The notes under the pieces are model-generated. The model was not told where the DNA came from, searched no databases, and worked only from the letters and a program-made list of their open reading frames with translations. A DNA stretch of 64,000 nt from positions 47,058,001-47,122,000 of the forward strand of contig OZ231126.1 in the NCBI GenBank assembly GCA_965153355.1, in the 5' to 3' direction. The DNA is from Flaccisagitta enflata. Its lineage: Eukaryota. Positions 1 through 61,000 of this stretch are shown piece after piece. Each line of letters begins with the position of its first letter. The stretch's first letter is position 1. The position numbers and the translations under genes were made by a program.

Positions 1-1684
1 AAAGAAATAAAATCATAAAAAAAGTAAAATGTGACCGACTGACCAACCGACTGTCGACCAACCGACCAACAAACTGACAAAGCGGGTTGTAGAGTTGCAT
101 GCACGCGACTAAAAATGTGAGAAAACAAGGCCAGATACACGACTACCAAAGTCGCATGCGGTTGGGCAGGGCATGGTTACCGACCGACCGACCGACGGAC
201 AAAGTGGGTTGTATAGTCGCGTCCAGCGACTAAAAAGGCATAATATGACACATTGATGTTGTATTGTGTCATTAGCTTTAAAGATTTCACAGAGTGAATG
301 GCTGTTTTCTCGTTTCATTCAGTAGTCATTCATCGCGTTCATACGATTAATTCAGTAGCTAGATTTCGTGACTCAACCCTTAGCTTCCATGAGTTATAGA
401 TCTCGTCTTTAAGTCAATGGTTAGAAAAATATCTGCTCATTCCTTTTCCATGTTTTAGATGAATTATTGTAGTCGTTAGATGCCCATTGTGTATCTCCTC
501 GCCATTTCATTTCCAAGCGTTATTTTGATACTAGCTCATTCTCAATCCTTTCTATCCCATTTAGATTCAATGTTGTACCAAGATCAAGAACCGTGTTGTG
601 TATGGGCCTTTTTATTACCGCATATTTAGAAGTCAGAGCCGTCAACGATTCCATATTTGTCTTTCTCCCGTTTGCTACGAGCAGAAGAGGCTAAGGTGCT
701 TTAAGTTATTCTTGAGTCACAGGTGACATTCTGAAGTCAGTTCTGAAGTTAGAATCAATTGTCGAGAGGAGGTCAAGGCCGCGCTGATCGAGCGAGCAAC
801 GAGACAATCATGGTGTCCCATTTGCTAAGTCGTATGATTAAAGTAATACCACTGAACGAATTTATGTAAATGGTGTAAATATTTCCTTTTTAGGGAGATG
901 AAAAACAAAAGGTCTCGAGATGCCCAGCGGGAAAAGTGAATGCTGATTCCCATTTCCCATCGGGAATCAGCAATTTTTCCGTACAAAATAGGAGAAAGTC
1001 TAAAATTGGATAAATATCTAGCAAAAATGGCGATAATTATCTGAAATTCGCTAGAATTCGCTAAATTAGCTAGGGGTTTTGAAAAAATCGCTAAATAATT
1101 CGCTAGGAGCTAGATGAGCAATTCTTGTCGCTAGGAGGGTCCAAAATTCGCTAGAAACAGCGACAAAATCGCCAAGTTTACAGCAGAAGTTCAGCTTGAA
1201 CTCGAGTCAAGTCCTGAAACAAGTCCTGAGGGAGTTAGAAAGACGGAACATCTCAATTTCTCAAGGAAAAAGGGTGTTTTTTTTTACTTGTTTCAATCTG
1301 GAACACTGACTGTATTTCTCAACGCAATCAAAGTTCCTTGGCAAAGCATCGATTAGAATTAGGCATGAATAAATTTTCTAACAAACCAGCCACCCGACGC
1401 TAGCTTTTCAGCCTTACCTTACGTGTATGATACCATAGAATTATCCAAACGCTGTGAAAATACCAATTCGTGAGTATCTGCTATATGCAAATGAGCTTAT
1501 AAGTTATAAATCGCGAAATACGACGCAAGTGTCTCAGGCAATAGTGAGACGATTAGCGAATATTTTCCTTTGGGTTCGAATGACCCAATAATCAATGACC
1601 GCTTTATCTTCTCTTTACCACTCAGTTTTCGTTTCCGATCTCACTTCGGATTCAACAAGAACACCGGAAAAACAATCGTGGGCA

Positions 1685-20266
<18,582 letters not shown>

Positions 20267-47500: not shown

Positions 47501-50500
47501 CAACCGAGGAATCAAGCCATGACTCAGAGACCGCGAAAACAGATGCCTTAGTCCGTGAGAGCAGAAGTCGAATTTCTGGTAGTTTGGGAATAAGAGAACG
47601 CACATTTGCGTGAAGAAAGTGGAGGCCTTTAGACGTGAGGACGCTAGGAATAGGACAGGATAGAAACGACGATGAAAGAGAAGTAGAGGAAGGAGCCGAG
47701 GAAGAGTTAGCAGTGGCGTCGGCAACGTGTTCGTCGACACCCGTATCATTTGCGAAAGGAAGCGAAGAGAGGCTGCAACGGTCGCAGACAAATGCCAAAT
47801 CAACCCCGTCACGCACGCACTCGTTGTACTTGGTGAGAGAGACAGAGAGAGAACATCGTATGTGCGTCCATTTAAGGCAGTAATCGCACTCAACAGCCTT
47901 ACTCGCCTTGGTTACGCCCTTCGCGCAAACGACACAAGGATGAGCAACATTTCGCGTCCTTTTCCCATCTGAACTCGTAGACGACGTAGACGGTCGCGGT
48001 CCCGGATGAAGATTGACGTCGCCGGAAAGAAGAAGCAGTTGACGTTGATGCTGTGTATGTTGCTGGTGCTGTGTATGTTGCTGGTGCTGTTGTTGATGCT
48101 GTTGTTGATGCTGTAGTTGATGTAGCTGTTGATGATGTAGATGTAGATGCGGCGTAGTAAAAGAGGGAGAACAGACGCTCAAATGATTAAGATGTATGAT
48201 GAGCGAACAGGTGAGAAATGAAAGGAGCGAGGAAGACATTGTCGACTCGGATATTGCCGCCGAAGCTAAACGAGAAATTGAAGCCAAAATTCCTTTGCCG
48301 CACTTGAAAAGTTTTGAAAACCACGTGCACGATGCCCGGTCGTCGCCCACGTCGGGTTAGTTTAAAGTCTTTTTACATTTTCCGCGTAGAATCGCCATAG
48401 GCCCAACATCGGGGACGTCACCATCAAAACCCTGACAGCTTGTCTTCCAATGTTTCTTCAACCTCAAATTTGACTAATCCAGTTTGCTTTTTCAATCTTC
48501 GGTCACGTCACCCTCCGACGCCCAAAATGGAGAACTTAAAAAAACAATTCCAGTATTCAATGTTTCCAGACTTTTCTTATTCTATCGCCGCATCTGATTG
48601 AACTTAATCCATTTTTATCTTCGACTATTCCACCGGAGACACATTTGTAGTCGTCTTAGAGTTGATTATTGAAATTTTTAAATTAAGCAAATAAAAGAAT
48701 GATGACAGTAGTTGAAGACGATGACAGTATTTGAAGATAATACCAGTAGTTGAAGATGATGACAGTAGTTGAAGATGAATCTTGAAATCCATGATGGCAA
48801 ACCTAAAGAAAAATCAGAATGTAATAAATGAGCAAGTAAAAGAATTCCAACTCCAATCCTCTATAGAAATTGCCAAAGTCCTAGAAACATATTACTACAT
48901 TAATAGGCTAATATCTTATAAACCAGACTTCAGATATAATTCAAATTTTGCAAGGGCACTTCAATTAATATCCTTTACTTGTATACCAAATTAAAAAAGA
49001 ATTCACATAACTTTGCTACCCTTTGCCTATGTAAACTGTGAATTATGGCGATTATTTTTGTAGTTTTTTGTGATTATTTGTCAATTTCGCCTATTTTGCT
49101 TTCCTCTCTGTTGATCATATTTGCGCCTGTTATTATCTCTGATTTTCTTCTTAGTTGATCAGTTATAATGTCTTGCGTGGTTCAAGCCTGGTCATGTTCC
49201 GGAGGCGAAATGCTACCTGGTGAGTCTTGGTGTGTATAAGAGGCTGGTTGGGCTGTACTATAGTTATATAGTTTGCTAGATTCCCTTGGTTAGTCAGTTA
49301 TTAGGTTTGTGGTAGGTCTAATCCTTCCTTCTCCCCTTGCCCCTTTCTTCTTTCTTTATCTGCAGCGTTTTGATACGACTTTTTACCTAGAAGACTCGAT
49401 GACGTGATTTTGGTGACGAATTGGCGCGATGATGTCAAACGATTGACTTGATTATGTACAACGAATTGGCGTGACGATGTGCAACGAGAAAGATCGGATA
49501 TGCTGAACATTTCGATGAGACTTGCTGAACATTCGATGGGATTTGCTGAACATTTCGACGAGATTCAAGGAACATTGACGTTGACGTTGGCGTGACGTCA
49601 TTTCCGGTGCGACTTCATCTTGGCGTTGGCGTGACTGCGGCTTTGGCGGCGTCATTCTTCCAGCCATCACTTGGGATTCACGGTACGAGCTTTTGGTGAT
49701 TGACCGTGTCATATGCAGTTTTCTACAGTATCAAAACGGACCTGGACATAACCAGTAATTTTTGTACCCAACCACAACCATGAGCACACAACCACAACAG
49801 GACGCAGGAGAAGGCGGGGAGCGACCAGTTTGGGACAGGCGGATCATCTCCAGAGTAAGGAGGGAGCTGAAACAAGAATACCTACTCGTGGAATCCGCCG
49901 TCAGTTTTGCTTCCGTCAGCTCCGAGCGGTCCGTGCTCATACGGTTTAACGATACAGCGAACAAGTTTTGTGACTTGGTGAACGCAAAGATCGCAGAGTA
50001 CAACAACTGTGTGATAGTAACAAAGGTCGCAGAAAGTGCCGCAAATGATTTGATGGTAGACATACACAGCTACAGGACGAAACTCGACACAACTCTCCAG
50101 CCGAGATATGTGGAGGAGGAGGGGGATGGCCACAGGGATGTGTCGTTCGAGGCCGGATCGCCGATAGAAAAAAAGGCGACGCCGGTCGAATTGAGAGCAA
50201 CGGATGGTGCGGCAGCGGCGCAGAACGGAAAAGACGCCGCACTAGACAAAACGATGCGAATCTCGGACAGCGACCTGAGCGAGGAGGAGGAGGAGGAAGA
50301 GAAGGAGACCGAAGCCACAGAGGAAAACGGCAGGGGGGGAGGCAACGCCGATCAAAACGGCGTAAGCGACGCCCCAGCCAGCGGCATATTCGGCAGGTTA
50401 ACGAATCTGTTTAAAAACTCAACCCCGACGGACGCTGTACCGGCCGTGAACGTGATTCCACCAACACCGGCAGACAAAGAAAGATCGCATACAAGAAGCG

Positions 50501-53500
50501 CCGCATCCATCGCGAGATCGCTCCAAGCGAGAGAAGAAAGAGATAAGAAGAAACAAGAAGAGGAGGAGCAGATGGAGGCGATGAGGAAGCAGAGTGAGGC
50601 AGAGGAGGTAGAGGCAATGCGGAAGGTGGAGGAGATAAGGAAGCAGAGAACATTAAACGAGAAACTACACGCTGCAAAGATGGACGGATTGGAAGCAATC
50701 CATGATAAGCAGCAACAAATCATCGAGGATGAGGAAAGTGAGGCGGCAGCGGAAGAGGCGATGAAAGACCTGGAAAAAACAGTGGAAGGGGCGAAAGGGG
50801 GTAAAGAAGACAATAATGCAGCAGTTGAGAGATGGGCAAAAGGAAATGTGCGCGAGCCCATTGCAAAAATTCTGCCGAAAAAAGTCGAGGTAGCGGCGCC
50901 GCCGAAAGGAAAAGCGGCGGTGAAGCTAGACCTCAAAAACATTAAAGTCACACCCCCAAAGGCAAAATCCCTTCCCGCGATCACCCCCATTATCCGGAAA
51001 GGCCGCATGAACTCTACATCGGAGAAAAAAAGGAGTAAAGAGGCGAGAAGGCTTTCGGAGGAAAAAGAAAAAGCGGAAAAGCGAGCGAGAGATTTGGAGG
51101 CTCAACTGAAACAGGTTCAAGAAACCGCGCGCCAAATGGAAAGCGCACTGAATGCGGTGGAGGAGGATGAGGAGGAGGAGGAAGATGACCTGGAGAAGAT
51201 GCCGTTATCTCCATCATACACAGAAAACAGTGGGTTTTGCGAAATGGTGAAAGTGCAAACCCAGATGTACGCGATGTCGCAACTAAAAGAGGCCCGTCCT
51301 GAGAAAAAATTCGCCGCATGTGGAAAAAAAGTGGATTTTTCAAAACATATGCTCGAATTTGAAACGGCGCTCGGGATAGTAGGCCTAACGGAAACGATGA
51401 AATTGAACGAGTTTCATCACTACTTTGAAGGGTCTGCGCTGCAGCTGATTGAAGCGGAGTTGAGAAGAAAAAACGATGCAGAAAAAGCAGTGTCTGATGC
51501 CATATCAAAACTAAATCGCAAATTTGGCACGAGAAAAGAAACGGCTTTGGAGATGATGGACGAGCTGTTGCAAGGGAAGCAGATTGGCGAGAAGGACCAC
51601 GGCGGGTTGCTGTCATTTTATTGTAGGTTGACTAGCATCCATACTTTGGCTTGCGACACCAATCGTGGAACAGAATTCGAGAACAAACTGGTCGTCGACT
51701 CGATCCTCAGCAAGAAGATTCCCCATCTGTCAGCTAAGTGGGCAAAGCGGTCTGTAAAAGACGCAATGGCCGGGGGAAAGGGATTGAATTTTGCGGCTTT
51801 TTTGAGTTTTCTTGATGAAGAACATGCGATTGCAGAGTATTGTTACAAAAACTCAGGTCAAGCGCAACAGATCAAGCCGATTGGCGCGAAAATAGCGGCG
51901 ACGACGGCAACAACCACCAAGAAGGAAGGAGCGACGGCAGCAGCAGCAACACCGCCCAAACCAGCAGGCGGATGCGGGCGCTGCGGTGGCCAACATCGAC
52001 TTCCGGCGTGTGACATTTTCAAAGGTCTCGCGGTGGGAGACAGAAGAAAATTTTGTATGAACACGCGCAGCTGCTATCAATGCTTGGAGGCGGGGCATAT
52101 GGCGAGAAATTGCCAATCACCCGACAAGTGCCCAATTTGCGGATTGGGGCATCACGAGCTGCTTCATCCGGTGGACGAGACGGCGCCGGCGCCACCTGGC
52201 GAAACAAATAATACGGCATGACTAGCGACGCCGAGACAAAACTCGATATTTAAGGTCGGCGGGGATGATGGAGCATGGAGACTAATTGTGCCGTTGTATG
52301 TGACGAACACGAGTGGAGACAAAATCGCCACATTTGCGCTCCTTGATGGAGGCGCAAATCGCCACGTAGTGTCAGAGGCGATTTGCGCAGATCTTGGTAT
52401 TGAAGGCAGGGATGTAAATATGAAAATTACAACTCTGGACAAAACCGTTGAAGGAGTGAGAAAAGTGGCAGATGTGTCTGTTGTGGGGACAAATGGTTTT
52501 GAGTTGGACCTGAAAAACGCGATCTTCGGCGAAATCATTGCGACGGAAGGCGATAGACCGCCGGAAAATGTCGACGTGGAAAATATGGACCATCTGAGCG
52601 ACATTGATTTTCCCGCGTTTCCCGAAAATATCGCCGGAGGAAAAAAGATTGGCGTTATCATCGGGGCCGAACATGCCAGAATTTGGAGTACGGGCGAAAG
52701 ACGCGTCGGCGACGCGTCACTTCCGGTGGCGCTGGAGACGGGGTTCGGCTTTTGTTTGATCGGCCCAAAGAAGAACATTGACTCGCATTGCTTTGTTTGT
52801 AACCATGTTTCTTTTCAGAGTTGCCCCACAGATACTGAAAAAGACATGAAAAAGTGTTTTGCGAGTGAATTTGAGAGAATCAAAGGAGATGATGAAACAA
52901 TGTCGTTGAAGGATAAGCATGCTGTGCGTCAATTGGAGGAAGGTATCATTTGGGACTCCCTCGCCGAGAGATACCGCGCGCCACTTCCGCATGTCGTCAG
53001 CCGGGAGGCCACCGCCGCCAAAATCAATAAAGTGGATTCGGGCGGTATGGCATTAGACCGACTGTGGAGGACGGGAAGGCAGATGCGAAAAGATCCGGAG
53101 AGACGACGGATAACGTTCGAAACAATGGCGAAATTCGATGAGAAAGGTAGAGTGGTAGAGGTGGATCCGGCGGAGCATGAAGCCACGCCGACAGACCGAC
53201 CAAAATGGACGATTCCGATTCACGTGACTGACAAGCCCGGAAAACCCGGGCAAGTCAGGATCTGTCACGATTGTCGGGCTTCTGTGGGTGGAATCTGCCT
53301 AAATGACTTTCTATTGGACGGCCCCCAACTTGCATGCGACATACGCGGTGTACTGATGCGATTTCGCGACGAGGGCGAAGTAGCGGTAGGCGCCGATATT
53401 AAGGACTTCTTTCATGAAGTGTATATCGCTAAGGAGGACGAGGCCGCCTTTAGATACTGGTGGTTCAAATCGGAAGATATGGACGATGTTCAGCTAAAGG

Positions 53501-56500
53501 GCTTTTTGGGACATGTTTTTGGTGCAAAAAGTTCAAATTTTGTCGCGATCTTCACAAAACGCTTCCACGTTAACAACAAAGCCGCTGAATATGGCGCCTT
53601 GGTTGTTCAAGCCGCGAATCGTAATTTTTATGTCGATGACCTCCTAAAGTCGTTGAGGAACACAAAAATCGCGAAGGAATTCCGGATAAATATGACGGCG
53701 GCGATGAAAGACGGTGGCTTCACTCTCTGCAAATGGCGCTCGTCCAAACCGGAAGTGCTTGATGGAATGGAAGCGGCGCCGGCCGAAAAAGACTTTTGCG
53801 GGCCGGCTGCCGACGCGGACGATATTGGGAAATTGTTAGGGATGCAATATTCGTTTTCTGCCGATGCTTTTTTTTACATTCCAGATCAGGAAAAGCAAAA
53901 TTTAAAAGTGGAAACGAAGCGGCAAATGCTGCAGGTGATTGCATCATTTTTTGACCCGTTGGGTTTCTTGGACCCTTTTGTGATATGGGCGAGACTCATT
54001 CTGCAGAAAGTGATGAAATTGCCAATTGGATGGGACGAGAAAACGATTGAGACGAATCTTCTTGACGAGTTCGCGAGGTGGCAGAGCGATTTTGTGTATC
54101 TTAATGGCTTCAAAATCTGTCGTTGGACGGCGACTTTGGCGACGCAGGATGCAAAACGGCAGCTGATGGTATTCTCGGACGCAAGTAGCGAAGGGTACGG
54201 CGTCGTTATATACGTCAGACGCGCAACGCCGGACGGCGTCATCCACATATCCATCGTCTGCTCGAAGGCGCACGTAGTGCCGGTAAAAGACGCTGAAGCC
54301 GGCCACCACGATTCCATCCCGAGGTTGGAACTGCAAGCGGCGAGATTGGCGGCTAGGATGCGAGTCAACGTGGAAAAAGAGACAGGGAGTTATGATAATG
54401 TGGTAATGTGGACTGATTCTGAATGTGTGATCAAACAGTTGCATGATACCGAAACTTGTTTCAAAGTCTATTTTTCCAATCGCCTTTCAGAAATTCAGGC
54501 GTTGACGAGCGTTGATGAGTGGCGGTGGGTTCCGAGCGGTGACAACCCTGCGGATGACTGCTCCCACGGCCTTCTCGCCAGCGATCCGAAGTGGGCACGT
54601 TTTTTGAATGGTCCGGACTTTTTGCGGAACCGGGAAGAAGATTGGCCGTCAAAGCAGATAGCGACGGAACCATTCCCAGCGCACATTTTGGCGACGACGG
54701 TGACAACGCCGGAAGTTACTCAATGCTCATGGGTGACAAAAATATCGTCGAGTGTCGCGGCATGGAAGGCGAAGGTACGGCGGATCGCGTGGGTGAAGAA
54801 AACTCTCCTCCAGGCGGTGTATCGGCGCCGCGGGGAGACCGGCGCCGTCGAGGCACGTTTGACGACGCCGGATTTACGGGATGCCGAGTTGCTGCTGCTG
54901 AAGGATATACAGCGGCGACACTTTACGAAGGAATTAGCGGCGTTGGCAGTGCAGCCGGCGAAGCCATCAAAGCGCCCGTCTGTGCAACCGAGTTCGACGG
55001 TAGCGGCGTTGAATCCCTTCATCGACGACGCCGGCATTTTAAGATGCAGAGGAAGACTGGAAAAGGCGGATTATCTGCCTTTTGATGCGAAGCATCCGAT
55101 CATTTTGCCCCATGGTGACGACGCTGTACTGGAACTGGTTCGCGGCATGCATGAACGATGCCTCCATGCCGGCGTTGAACAAATTTTGGGGGAATCGCGG
55201 CGCCGTTTTTGGATAACAAAAGGGCGCCGGCTTGTGACTCGTGTTGTAAGGGCGTGTGTGGGATGCCAAAAACTCTTTAAATCGCCTCAATCGCAGCAGA
55301 TGGCGCCACTTCCGTCGGAGAGAACTTTGGTTTGTAGGCCTTTCGAGAACACCGGCGTGGATTGCTTCGGCGCGATCAAGTGTAAGATCGTCGGGCGTGC
55401 ATTTCATGAAGTAAATGTTGCGTTGTTCACTTGTATGGCGACAAGGGCCGTGCATTTCGAAGTTTTGCGGACGATGGAGGCGTCCAGTTTCATCGACGCT
55501 CTGCAACGTTTCCGCGCCCGGAGACCGGCGGTCCGCTGCCTGTTTTCGGATCAAGGCACTAATTTCACCGCCGCCGAGAAGGAGATCGCGGCTGAAGTGG
55601 CTTCTTGGAATGCGTCGTCGGCGAGTGATCTGCATCTGCTGGGGCTGGAGTGGAAATTTAATCCTCCAACGTCTCCGCATCGTGGCGGCGTTTGGGAGCG
55701 GATGGTGAGATCAGCGAAAAAACACTTATCATTCGTGCTCCAACGTGATAATTTGAACATCGAGACTCTGACGACTGTGTTGGCCCAGGCGGAATTGACA
55801 ATGAACTCGAGGCCGATTACTTATGTGTCTGATGAGCCGGGGGTTCATGCCTTGCGGCCGATTGATTTTTTGTGTCCGGGGGTTTTTGCATCGTCGGACT
55901 GTGATATTCTGCCCCCTACCCCACCTGGAGGCGATAATTTGCGGTATAGTTGGCGCCAGTCTAGGGCGCTGGTGGACGAGTTTTGGAAGCGGTGGTCACG
56001 TGATTATCTGTCAGCACTCCAGGCGAGACCGAAGTGGAGATCATCGGAACCAAATCTGCAAGTCGGCGATGTGGTGTTGTTGGTGGATGATCAGTGTCGA
56101 CGGGGTGATTGGCGATGTGGAGTCGTCATGGAGACTGATGGAGGCGAATTGGTGAGGACGGTGACGGTTAAGACTGCTGCCGGCAAAACTTTTTCGCGTG
56201 ATAGAACGAGAGTGGTATGTTTGGAATTGGACCCAATGCGGGCTGAGGAGTAGTTCTTCCTCTTTGTACAGTATTTTTATTTTAGCGTATGCTTTTCGTG
56301 ATTGTTTTTCCGTTGCGCTTTGGGTTTAATTATTTGGAGGATTTTTTGTTGATTGACGCGTTTTGCTTTTTTTGTCGACGATGATTTTGCCCCATCTCTT
56401 TTCTTTAAAGATTATCATTGACGTTTTTCAGCTGATTTTGCGTTATTTCGACTTATTTTTTCTTTTTGATTTTTCGCTTGGCGCTATGGATTGGTTACTT

Positions 56501-57978
56501 AAATGTGGATTTTGTATATGTCATTTTGGTGCAATTTGATGTATTGATTTGTTCGCCTTGAATATTATTTTGCTGTTGCTGTTTCTTTTTGCCTTTCTAT
56601 CTGTGTCCCTCTTCTTTCTTTTAGTTCCCTAGTGGTTATTTAGTGTTAGTGCATTTTAGTTTCTCAGTTGGTGGAAGTTGGTGCTTGTGGAAGTGTCGTA
56701 TTTTTTCTGTGGTATTTTTTCGTGGTAGTGATAATGTCGTCGGTGGATGCTGGAGTGGAAGTGGAGATGGAGGTGGGTGATGGTGCTGGTGCAGCCGGTA
56801 CCGGTGTGGGTGTGGGTAGCCCGCGGATGAGGGGTGGTAGTGCTGGGAGTTTCGTGGGTGGTGCTCTGGAGGAAGACCAGGAAGGGGTGGATGCGGTGGT
56901 GGGTGATGAGGAAGGGGTGAATGCGGTGGTGGGTGATGAGGAGGGGGGTGAGGTACCTCCGGTGCCCTATGCGGATTTTCTGCAGCAGGTACCGGAGGGG
57001 CGGGCGTTGAGGAGGTTGGCATGGATGAAGGACGGGGTGGTGTTGGGCGGCGGAAGGGTCACAGCGGCCGACTTGATGGTGGGCAGCGGGCCGGTGGCTG
57101 TTCCGCCGTGGATGAACTCTTGGGTTGAAATGGACAATGTGGATAGGGATCTTTGTGGATTGCGCCAAGTGGCAGTGGCCTTCCACAAAGTTGCCCACCC
57201 GTCTCTCCCCCACCTGTGTGTGCTGCAGGTGTTGCGGCAGGATCATCTGCCGAACTTTTATTTGATGGTGGATGGACATGATCCGAAGGAATTGTTGGAG
57301 ATTCCGTCTTATAACTTTGATGGAAAGAACGTCATCTTTTGGGGCGAGGAGCCGGGGATGCGTTTTGCGGTGACGACGGCGGTGGAGGAGGAGGGCTTCT
57401 GCGAATATTGGAGCTGGCATGATGAGGAGACTCATCACTCGCCGAAATGGCAGGCTTGGCCGAAGTCGGGGAGGCCGGGTTGTCAGGCCAACGCATTTGG
57501 GCCTTTAGCGCCGGTCTTGCAGTTTTGGGCGGAAGTGGAACAGGTGGTGGCGGCGGCATCGGCGGCACCTACTCCGGCGTGGATGCGGCCGGCATTGAAA
57601 CGGATCGTCGCGGCTTGGAAGGAGAAGTATGACTCTGTTTTGAAGAAGCCGGAGTATGTGCCGGAGGAGTTCTTTGGGGCAAAGCGGCGCGGCGGCCAGG
57701 GGAAGGGGATGTTGGCGGCGCAGGAGTTGTTGGCAGATGCAATGCGGGGGATGCATTTTACGGAGCCAGAGGCGGCCAGTGGGGCATTGCCTGCCGGGGA
57801 GGCAATGCCGCCTCTAGTGCCGGCGGAGGAAGTGGTGGTGGCGGCGCCGGAGGTGCCGGCGGCGGTGGCAGCGTCGTCGGCGGCGGTGGCGGCGTCATCA
57901 GCGGCGGCGGCGGCGACGGTGTCTTCGGTGGTGAGGGCTGTGGTCGGTGGGGGTGGCGTTCCTCCGGCTGCGGTTGAT

Positions 57979-58012
<34 letters not shown>

Positions 58013-61000
58013 AGGCGGAGAAGCAGAGGAAGAAAACGAAGAACAAAGAGAGGCACGATAGGGCGAAGATGGCAAGGGAGGCGAAACGCGAGGAGGAGGC
58101 TCGTGCCAAGGAGGAGGAGGAGCGGCGGCGCTGGGAGGACCAACAGCGGCGTTGGGAGGAGGAGCAGCGCCGGGTTGAGGAGGAAGGGCGCCGGGTGGAG
58201 GAAGAGCGGCGCCGGTTGGAGGAGGAGCGGCGCCGGCGGGAGGAAGTGGCTGCGGCGGAAGTTGCGCGGAAGGAGGAAGAGCTGCGCCGTGCGAGGGAGG
58301 CGTTGGCAGGATGCGGCGGCGGTGGAGGTGCCCCTGGCAGGCCCTCATCGTCGTCATCACAGTGGCGTGAGAGGGGCCATTGTGGCTTTCGTGCCCCTCT
58401 TCCTCCGTCGTCTTCAGTCTCGTCGGGGCGGGTCCAGCCGCCGTCTCGGGCGCTGGACGCGTCGTTTGCGTCATCGTCGTCGGCGATGTCGCAGGAGGAA
58501 GTGGACTTGGCGGTGGCGCAGGCATACGCGGCGGGTGCGCGCCGCGAGCGGGAGGCGAGGCGAGAGAGGGAGCAAGGGGTGCGCGAGCGCAGCGACGACC
58601 GTGCTTCAGCCCCTTCAGCAACATCAACGCCACGGGCTGAGAGGCCGTCTCGGCCGCAGTCCCGCGGCGGTTATGGCGGTGGTGGTAGTGGTCGTCATGG
58701 ATGGCGCGGCGGTTCGGCGTCGGGCCGGCGGCGTTAGAAGCATGCCGCCGTGTCCGTCCGTCCGTCCGTCTGCTCGCCCGTTACTTAGGTAGGTTTTGCC
58801 TGCGTCTTCCCTGTGTTTTTTTTTGAGGGGGGACGGTTGATTAGGTTTGAAGTATGATTCAAACGGGGGGATTGTGAATTATGGCGATTATTTTTGTAGT
58901 TTTTTGTGATTATTTGTCAATTTCGCCTATTTTGCTTTCCTCTCTGTTGATCATATTTGCGCCTGTTATTATCTCTGATTTTCTTCTTAGTTGATCAGTT
59001 ATAATGTCTTGCGTGGTTCAAGCCTGGTCATGGTCCGGAGGCGAAATGCTACCTGGTGAGTTTTGGTGTCTATAAGAGGCTTGTTGGGCTGTACTGTAGT
59101 TATATAGTTTGCTAGATTCCTTTGGTTAGTCAGTTATTAGGTTTGTGGTAGGTCTAATCCTTCCTTCTCCCCTTGCCCCTTTCTTCTTTCTTTTATCTGC
59201 AGCGTTTTGATACGACTTTTTACCTAGAAGACTCGATGACGTGATTTTGGTGACGAATTGGCGCGATGATGTCAAACGATTGACTTGATTATGTACAACG
59301 AATTGGCGTGACGATGTGCAACGAGAAAGATCGGATATGCTGAACATTTCGATGAGACTTGCTGAACATTCGATGGGATTTGCTGAACATTTCGACGAGA
59401 TTCTATGAACATTGACGTTGGCGTTGGCGTGACGTCATTTCCGGTGCGACTTCATCTTGGCGTTGGCGTGATTGCGGCTTTGGCGGCGTCATTCTTCCGG
59501 CCATCACTTGGAATTCACGGTACGAGCTTTTGGTGATTGACCGTGTCATATGCAGTTTTCTACATAAACTGCCTAAGTCATAGTAACATATCACTACATA
59601 AATAAGCTAATATCTCATAAAGCAGATTTCAGATTTAATTCAAATTTTACAGGGCTTATTTATTTACTACCCTCTACTTGCATACCAAATTAGAAAAAAA
59701 TTCACATACCTTTACTACCCTTTGCCTATGTAAATTGCCCAAGTCCTAGCAACATACTATTACATAAATAAACTAATATCTCATAAACCAGACTTCAGAT
59801 TTAATTCGAATTTTGCAGGGGTTGTTTATTTACTACCCTCTACTTGTTTACCAAATTAAAAAAAAATTCATAAACCTTTACTACCCTCTACCTATGTAAA
59901 ATGCTTAAGTCCCAGCTAAATATTACTACAAAAATAATAGGCAAAGGGTAGTAAAAGTTAATGAATTTTTTTGAAAATTGGTGCACAAGCTCCTATTGAC
60001 CTACAAACAACACCAGCAAAGTTTCATAAAATTCTGAAGTCTGGTTCCAAAAATATGAGAGGGTTTTAAACAGACAGACAGACGGACAGACAGACTACAC
60101 ATCACTGCTACTTCATAGTCACCGACGAAAGCTGTTCGTCGGGGACAAAAAAAAAGGAACCGGTAGTACCTATAGTGAACATCCAGCCAAAATTAAGATT
60201 GAGCGTAAGTTCAAGAATATTCAGCTATACAAAATTATCATTAACAAGTCCGATCAGGCAACGATGCGTCCTGACTTTGTCTCTGCTTGTATTGACTTTG
60301 GCGCTCAACTCGGATGGTCAGAAAGGTGAAAAGACATAGAACCATAAGAGGCTCTCAAAACATCCTAACGACTGTTTGACTTGATGCGTGACACCCTCGC
60401 GGCCGAAAATTGCCAAAAACTACGATTTTCAAGGTGTAACTGACGGAGGGACGGACCAACCGACCGATGGAGGGACGGACCAACCGACCGACGGACGGAT
60501 GGACGGACAGACAGAACCTCATAGATATGCAAGGACGCATCTAAAAACGAACTTGCAATGACTTTGCATGAATGGAGTACACAAAATTGAAAACAAATTT
60601 GTGTTCACGTTTCACACCTTACCAAATGACGCTCTCACCTGTGGGGAAACGGGCATCTGCCGCCCCTCATGCATTGTCCCATCTGGAATTCTTTGCATAC
60701 AAACATGCTCTTGATGCCGCCCTTGCACTTGACGCATCTCGATTTCGGGTATGGACCGAGACAATCGATACACACGTGACGTTTCTCGCATTTCACGCCA
60801 TTGTCGCATCCCTTGGCGTGATTAAACGCTTCGCAAATTTCTTTAACGTAACGCCAGCCTTCCTCATCGACCTCGGTGTCCTCGGGTTCCGGTTCGGACG
60901 TCTCGCCCTTGGCGGCTTTCGCTTCCTCTTCTTTGATCTTCTGCGCGCAGCTAAGCAGCGTGGAGATGTTGAGGTCGTACAGCGTCAATGCGTCCATCAT

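Follow-up and report, generated by a model that had tools for sequence, protein, structure and literature searches.

Within a 64,000-nt stretch of the Flaccisagitta enflata genome (assembly GCA_965153355.1, contig OZ231126.1, positions 47,058,001 to 47,122,000; this whole stretch is called the window here, and positions are counted from its first letter), an intact BEL/Pao long terminal repeat (LTR) retrotransposon occupies positions 49037–59564. The 11 nt adjoining its 5′ LTR are the exact reverse complement of a word inside that LTR, and the same layout, with different complementary words, was found in five other BEL/Pao lineages. This comparison supports the original prediction, according to which the element would prime reverse transcription from its own RNA.

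The element and the site adjoining its 5′ LTR

The following features were identified at the locus:

49032–49036 (+): left copy of the target-site duplication TAAAC, identical to the 5 nt after the 3′ LTR
49037–49727 (+): 5′ LTR, 691 bp, with TG...CA ends, read directly and from the LTR alignment
49220–49225 (+): GTGAGT, a hexamer in the LTR resembling a 5′ splice site, 146 nt upstream of the word
49323–49365 (+): pyrimidine-rich tract ending in CAG, immediately 5′ of the word
49366–49376 (+): candidate self-primer word CGTTTTGATAC in the 5′ LTR, exact reverse complement of 49728–49738
49728–49738 (+): putative primer-binding site GTATCAAAACG, adjoining the 5′ LTR and lacking TGG
49780–52221 (+): gag open reading frame (ORF), 813 aa, with a weak CCHC zinc knuckle and a terminal stop codon in the pol frame
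52222–56253 (+): pol ORF, open from 52222 in the gag frame, with Pao peptidase, integrase zinc-binding domain and DUF5641
56734–58737 (+): third ORF, 667 aa, downstream of pol
58861–58872 (+): polypurine tract AAACGGGGGGAT, abutting the 3′ LTR
58873–59564 (+): 3′ LTR, 692 bp
59203–59213 (+): copy of the word in the 3′ LTR
59565–59569 (+): right copy of the target-site duplication TAAAC

The assignment to BEL/Pao, made originally from the sequence, was confirmed by Pfam matches of pol to Peptidase_A17 (PF05380, 3.8e-36), DUF5641 (PF18701, 1.3e-22) and PF17921 (1.2e-07). The pol product combines the Pao-type aspartic peptidase region with the BEL/Pao integrase C-terminal domain, and the TG...CA LTR pair, the short target duplication and the polypurine tract are likewise those of the superfamily. 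The two LTRs are 98.1% identical over 692 columns, and the empty-site joint 49031→59565 is present in five DNA contigs, three from sequencing run X2 and two from run X1. The element is an intact, young, recently inserted BEL/Pao LTR retrotransposon.

Direct reading verified that the 11 nt after the 5′ LTR, at offset 0, are exactly complementary to positions 49366–49376, and that the word is kept in the 3′ LTR. The match between LTR and site measures exactly 11 nt, with no extension on either side (the longest exact complement is 11 nt). TGG is absent at offsets 0–5 after the 5′ LTR, as had been claimed, and this absence excludes only the canonical type of site that pairs with the 3′-CCA end of a transfer RNA (tRNA). 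Using the remainder of the window as a control, 42 of 62,585 11-mers outside the LTRs were found to have their reverse complement in the LTR. Among LTRs generated by an order-1 Markov model, 191 of 200,000 contained the complement, a chance of about 1e-3 at this offset, and 82 of 20,000 gave at least 11 nt when offsets 0–5 were allowed.

The original prediction also described two further helices beyond the 11-mer, TAGAAGACT with AGTTTTCTA (one G-U pair) and ATGACGTG with CGTGTCAT (two G-U pairs). Both are present in the sequence, but they are no better than chance and do not count as evidence: the duplex energy of −20.6 kcal/mol, compared with a shuffle mean of −15.1 (standard deviation 3.2), was attained in 115 of 2000 shuffles, as well as in 147 of the 1301 other segments of this length (44 nt) taken from the element. 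Similarly, the two 11-mers are paired in the minimum-energy fold of 49366–49745, as proposed, while the fold as a whole is unremarkable (z = −0.32, with 30 of 100 shuffles folding equally well). The 11-nt complement at the LTR end places the element within the definition of self-priming given for plant elements in the relevant part of PMC6317226, namely a complement of at least 10 bp located 0–5 bp after the 5′ LTR.

Complementary words in other BEL/Pao elements

A search with a broad pol profile identified 20 BEL/Pao loci, all on contigs that belong to bacterial metagenome-assembled genome (MAG) records, and further copies were added by searching those records. We took these contigs to be misbinned DNA of host animals, since BEL/Pao elements are described as metazoan-infecting (PMC8742986). 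Complete animal BEL/Pao elements (L002–L021, records G001–G010) occur under the names of Rubritalea, Endozoicomonas, Sedimenticola and other bacterial MAGs, and one MAG record contains 36 pol matches, which points to contamination of those bacterial bins with host DNA.

Besides the element in the window, 13 elements had an LTR/site junction that was defined by self-alignment, and BEL/Pao identity was confirmed by Pfam for the five comparator ORFs checked. Two elements were excluded, L019 for its unclear LTR ends and L055, a member of the L056 family, for its diverging 3′ LTR end; in L004, the LTR end is undefined and the complement reaches only 7 nt. An exact complement of at least 8 nt at offset 0–4, with the LTR copy directly following a pyrimidine–A–purine triplet, is present in six of the 13 comparators, representing five lineages, while five have a TGG site and two have neither. 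The words, their offsets and the distances from word start to LTR end are as follows:

L003: CAA, then CGTTATTGAAC; 11 nt; offset 4; 110 nt
L002 and L052: CAG, then GTTGAACT; 8 nt; offset 1; 52 and 56 nt, respectively
L011: CAG, then GTTTTAAC; 8 nt; offset 2; 86 nt
L015: TAG, then TTTTCCAC; 8 nt; offset 0; 112 nt
L007: CAG, then CTTTTTAC; 8 nt; offset 0; 137 nt

Covariation of word and site, which had been named as a check on the original prediction, is seen between lineages in the form of six different exact pairs, the evidence coming from outside the window's own family. The related elements L002 and L011 illustrate it, with GTTGAAC in the former and GTTTTAAC in the latter, each site changing together with its own word. 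When Markov LTRs were scored for complements of at least 8 nt at offsets 0–5 following AG, 106 (L002), 300 (L052), 512 (L011), 39 (L015) and 165 (L007) of 20,000 qualified. For L003, the corresponding figure under the pyrimidine–A–purine rule was 79 of 20,000, and its 11-mer taken alone was obtained in 40 of 20,000 Markov LTRs. The AG rule was set by the element in the window and then recurred in four independent lineages.

Two regularities were noted at the edges of the paired words. In five of the six lineages (the window, at position 49739, and L002, L011, L015 and L007) a G follows the site word and a G precedes the LTR word, so that the complement ends at G opposite G. The site word begins with GT in every lineage except that of L002 and L052, where GT comes one base later.

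The five elements with TGG (L013, L054, L056, L057 and L059) have ordinary sites, and a complement of at least 8 nt was found in none of them. The L059 site matches tRNA-Lys(CUU), encoded on a contig of a searched record, over 17 nt and serves as a positive control. The post-LTR sequence of L060 (6170–6195) shares 9 nt with an internal part of the tRNA-Lys(CUU) site of L059, and may represent a tRNA site that has decayed or shifted. A scan for the layout by pattern only, in contigs with no defined LTR end, returned matches at the rate of its reverse-strand control, with the single L012 match lying inside gag coding sequence, and was rejected.

A pol tree was constructed with FastTree, with local support only. 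L003, L011, L002 and L052 form one clade (support 99), and L015 and L007 form another together with L070 and L071 (100), the 5′ ends of the latter two being missing. Both clades lie inside a 13-row clade (98) that also contains L010 and L060. The element in the window groups with P0001, P0007, P0011 and P0014 in a separate clade (100), whose link to the clade that holds four TGG-type elements is weak (69); the fifth, L013, branches elsewhere. The signature is present in at least three clades, a distribution that would fit one origin or several.

Coding region, insertion site and relatives

The gag and pol genes are in the same frame, separated by a single stop codon (52219–52221), which suggests that pol is expressed by stop-codon readthrough, with no frameshift. 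No Pfam family was detected in the third ORF, and an Atlas search gave no usable match for it; an env-like or accessory role is possible.

The insertion site is a highly repeated tandem satellite with a unit of ~166 bp (48860–49036 and 59565–59903). In the DNA runs, the depth of satellite words is thousands-fold above that of the element (~2,000,000 versus ~1000 in X2), and many contigs link both satellite flanks directly. An (ACAG)n-type microsatellite is located at 60070–60100 in the right flank, just past the satellite.

The nearest pol proteins, P0001–P0014, originate from metagenome assemblies and contain the same Pfam families, with identities of 49–65%; the exception is P0003, a 62% fragment at 99% identity. 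In the sequencing runs, the element family is multi-copy in one organism and is also found in marine metagenomes. The four runs compared with the element consisted of contigs, and none of the differences listed for them falls in either 11-mer, which carries no weight in either direction. At the DNA level, searches of viral and genome contigs with pol and with a family profile gave no match to close relatives, and the search of metagenome contigs revealed a 1197-nt pol fragment, L001, as the sole one. The broad BEL/Pao pol profile had no match in viral contigs, and an exact look-up of eight spurious ORFs spanning the LTR/site region, made for variant copies, found none in the protein collection.

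Proposed priming mechanism and alternative explanations

The word follows a pyrimidine–A–purine triplet, mostly CAG, in all six lineages, and it always starts 2 nt after the A of this triplet. In L003 a TATA-like ATAAAT is located 28 nt upstream of the word, and in L002, L052, L011 and L015 the motif AATAAA lies 1–24 nt after it. Judged from these sequences, the placement of the word is compatible with an RNA 5′ end. In the window, the tract at 49323–49365 could be a start-site context or a motif resembling a 3′ splice site. One X2 contig carries seven differences at 49332–49360, six of them pyrimidine-to-pyrimidine and one A>C, with none in the ~50 nt beyond 49360 among the differences listed before a one-base deletion at 49408; this deletion is not assignable to that contig.

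Self-primed reverse transcription has been demonstrated only in the Tf1 group of Ty3/gypsy elements; the Tf1 primer consists of 11 nt and begins at the very first base of the messenger RNA (mRNA). In Tf1, Tf2 and Tj1, the site beside the 5′ LTR is reported to pair with a short stretch in the repeat (R) region of the RNA of the element itself, and in Tf1 the reverse transcriptase/RNase H of the element cuts off this self-primer and extends it (PMC4600332, PMC5341516). The site of Tj1 and Tf1 is described as complementary to the mRNA 5′ end (PMC4600332).

We propose, with a probability of roughly 0.65, that the element in the window likewise uses its own RNA to prime minus-strand DNA synthesis, with no tRNA involved. 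The genomic RNA would start at or slightly before 49366 in the 5′ LTR, and its first nucleotides (CGUUUUGAUAC) would fold back on the 11-nt site that follows the unique 5′ region (U5) of the LTR. The RNase H of the element would then cut after the word, between 49376 and 49377, and the freed 3′ OH would be extended through U5 and R. The resulting short complementary DNA (cDNA) would be transferred to the R copy in the 3′ LTR, and plus-strand strong-stop synthesis would finally copy the word back into the site, so that perfect complementarity would be kept in every cycle. Such priming should also be workable if transcription started further upstream in the LTR, since everything 5′ of the cut would serve only as primer and be restored from the 3′ LTR.

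Several observations weigh against this proposal. The 8-nt words, on which four of the five supporting lineages depend, are singly weak, with 934 to 3131 of 20,000 Markov LTRs providing one when the context rule is not applied. The pyrimidine–A–purine rule was noticed and counted in the same data, so that the joint figure is post hoc. The LTR end of L011 was set by its terminal inverted repeat, 13 nt past the last aligned base, because the contig cuts its 3′ LTR, and L010 and L060 have neither a TGG site nor the layout. In the window itself, no TATA-like motif lies ~30 nt upstream of 49366, the nearest being at 49164, 49235 and 49265, and the stretch from R to the end of U5 would be 362 nt long, compared with 52–137 nt in the comparators. 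Repeats and enhancer-looking motifs, TGACG or similar to the cAMP response element, are located downstream of the word at 49399–49660. This region contains repeated TGACG, a perfect TGACGTCA palindrome (49593–49600) and tandem units of ~21–22 bp (49492–49563), which look more like an enhancer than like R and U5.

It is also conceivable, but in our view unlikely, that a cellular RNA, such as a half or fragment of a tRNA or some other small RNA, primes at a non-canonical site, while the LTR word forms a regulatory panhandle; pairing of the RNA 5′ end with the site could then mask the site or control translation or packaging. Priming by half-tRNAs is known in Ty1/copia lineages, as stated in PMC6317226, and the portion of an errantivirus (Ty3/gypsy) survey concerned with primer sites reports a tRNA site in 1151 of 1512 elements by one method (PMC13524379); since about a quarter have no identifiable tRNA site, a missing TGG alone is weak evidence. 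However, a conserved host RNA would hold the site constant, whereas the post-LTR words differ between lineages, each being complementary to the LTR of its own element, so one host RNA could not be the primer for them all. For this reason self-priming is favoured over a shared host primer. Scans with ARAGORN, covering the window, and with Rfam, covering 48900–49900, found no tRNA and no match, respectively. When 112 distinct tRNAs served as a surrogate set, the self-type sites had complements of at most 6–8 nt, none of them at a tRNA 3′ end, which is a weak control, the set having been collected from fetched loci of five records other than the window's host, with 21 of the 112 lacking an encoded CCA and looking eukaryotic. 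In this small non-host set, the best complement to the site in the window was 8 nt, internal to a tRNA-Gln with an encoded, bacterial-type CCA.

A role of the pairing in RNA processing appears quite improbable. Here, the pyrimidine tract and the CAG that precede the word would together form a genuine 3′ splice site, joined either in cis to the GTGAGT at 49220 or to a spliced leader, the post-LTR sequence starting with GT would be related to splicing, and the complementarity would regulate splicing or 3′-end formation in the LTRs. The word does follow AG in five of the six lineages, GTGAG[TG] occurs 30–146 nt upstream of it in five of six, and the AG is preceded by a pyrimidine-rich tract in the window, L002, L007 and L015. 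On the other hand, L003 has CAA, together with the TATA-like box at the distance of a transcription start, the candidate introns of L011, L002 and L052 would be very short (30–50 nt), and the elements would be left with no primer site at all. The joint 49219→49366 is not listed, but RNA cover of 49071–49812 is almost nil, so this carries little weight. We prefer the start-site reading of the triplet over the splicing one, since L003 breaks the AG rule and a start site fits all six lineages. The arrangement of GTGAGT, pyrimidine tract and CAG ending exactly at the word gives the LTR an intron-like appearance in the window (49220–49365), L002 (~1669–1718), L052, L011 and L015.

That the 11-nt complement is a coincidence and the true primer site lies elsewhere is very improbable: a per-element chance of ~1e-3 to 4e-3 does matter in a large scan over many LTR elements, and the extra helices and the whole fold do stand at chance level, but L003 is an independent 11-nt case, four more lineages share the same position-specific layout, and the TGG closest to the LTR, at 49743 (15 nt downstream), is too distant from it. 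A tRNA matching that TGG would have an A/T-rich acceptor stem starting with C, which is atypical.

The likeness to Tf1, Tf2 and Tj1, of the Tf1/sushi group of Ty3/gypsy chromoviruses, consists in an LTR-adjoining site complementary to a segment of the element's own 5′ LTR. The Tf1 group has a chromovirus pol, whereas the element in the window encodes the Pao peptidase and DUF5641, has BEL/Pao elements as its nearest relatives, and hence belongs to another superfamily; it is not a member of the Tf1/sushi clade and resembles Tf1 at most in its way of working. The BEL/Pao word starts 2 nt after the A of the triplet, whereas the Tf1/Tj1 site pairs with the mRNA 5′ end; in four of the five comparator lineages the word has only 8 nt, and the BEL/Pao case is known from sequence alone. 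Self-priming has also been predicted for the plant elements Tcn1 (Ty3/gypsy) and TAR (Ty1/copia) by Neumann et al. 2019, in the part of that study dealing with them (PMC6317226). These calls are purely computational, like ours, and the same definition covers the window and L003, but the plant elements belong to the two other superfamilies. The Tcn1 and TAR predictions show that self-priming is not confined to one superfamily.

Canonical BEL/Pao elements (Belpaoviridae, Semotivirus) share with the element in the window the LTRs, a gag-pol with Pao peptidase, an optional third gene, the polypurine tract and a 5-bp duplication. They are described by the international body for virus taxonomy (ICTV), in its passage on the primer site, as primed by a host tRNA through an 18-nt site for the 3′ end of tRNA-Arg or tRNA-Gly (PMC8742986). 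A canonical site of the tRNA type is absent in the window and in the five other lineages, while it is present in five sampled elements. Primer sites are not mentioned in the survey of metazoan BEL/Pao elements (PMC3118150), and our literature search found no paper proposing self-priming for BEL/Pao, although an unremarked case in supplementary tables is possible.

A broader reading, which we regard as tentative and rather doubtful, is that self-priming is widespread and possibly ancestral in large parts of BEL/Pao, with a metazoan peculiarity: in all lineages seen, the word is placed exactly 2 nt after the A of the triplet, mostly just behind a pyrimidine tract and CAG and downstream of a GTGAG motif. 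One could hypothesise that the RNA starts at the A of the triplet and that the two cap-adjacent nucleotides, which carry 2′-O-methyl groups in animals, stop plus-strand strong-stop synthesis, in which case they would act like the modified base of tRNA primers. The other option within this broader reading takes the motif as a genuine 3′ splice site; host-driven or spliced transcripts would then still provide a full, self-primable genome, since everything 5′ of the cleavage site is discarded.

Altogether, comparison between lineages supports the view that a known mechanism may operate in a superfamily from which it has yet to be reported, the words standing in a recurrent sequence context. The word offers a testable prediction of the transcription start where LTR structure is otherwise unreadable, and pipelines for annotation that demand a primer site of the tRNA type will discard or misannotate young, intact BEL/Pao elements such as the one in the window. 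If the signature is functional, it would bear on whether fold-back priming is ancestral or has evolved repeatedly and on the cutting of RNA duplexes by RNase H, and all three superfamilies of LTR retrotransposons would include tRNA-independent lineages.

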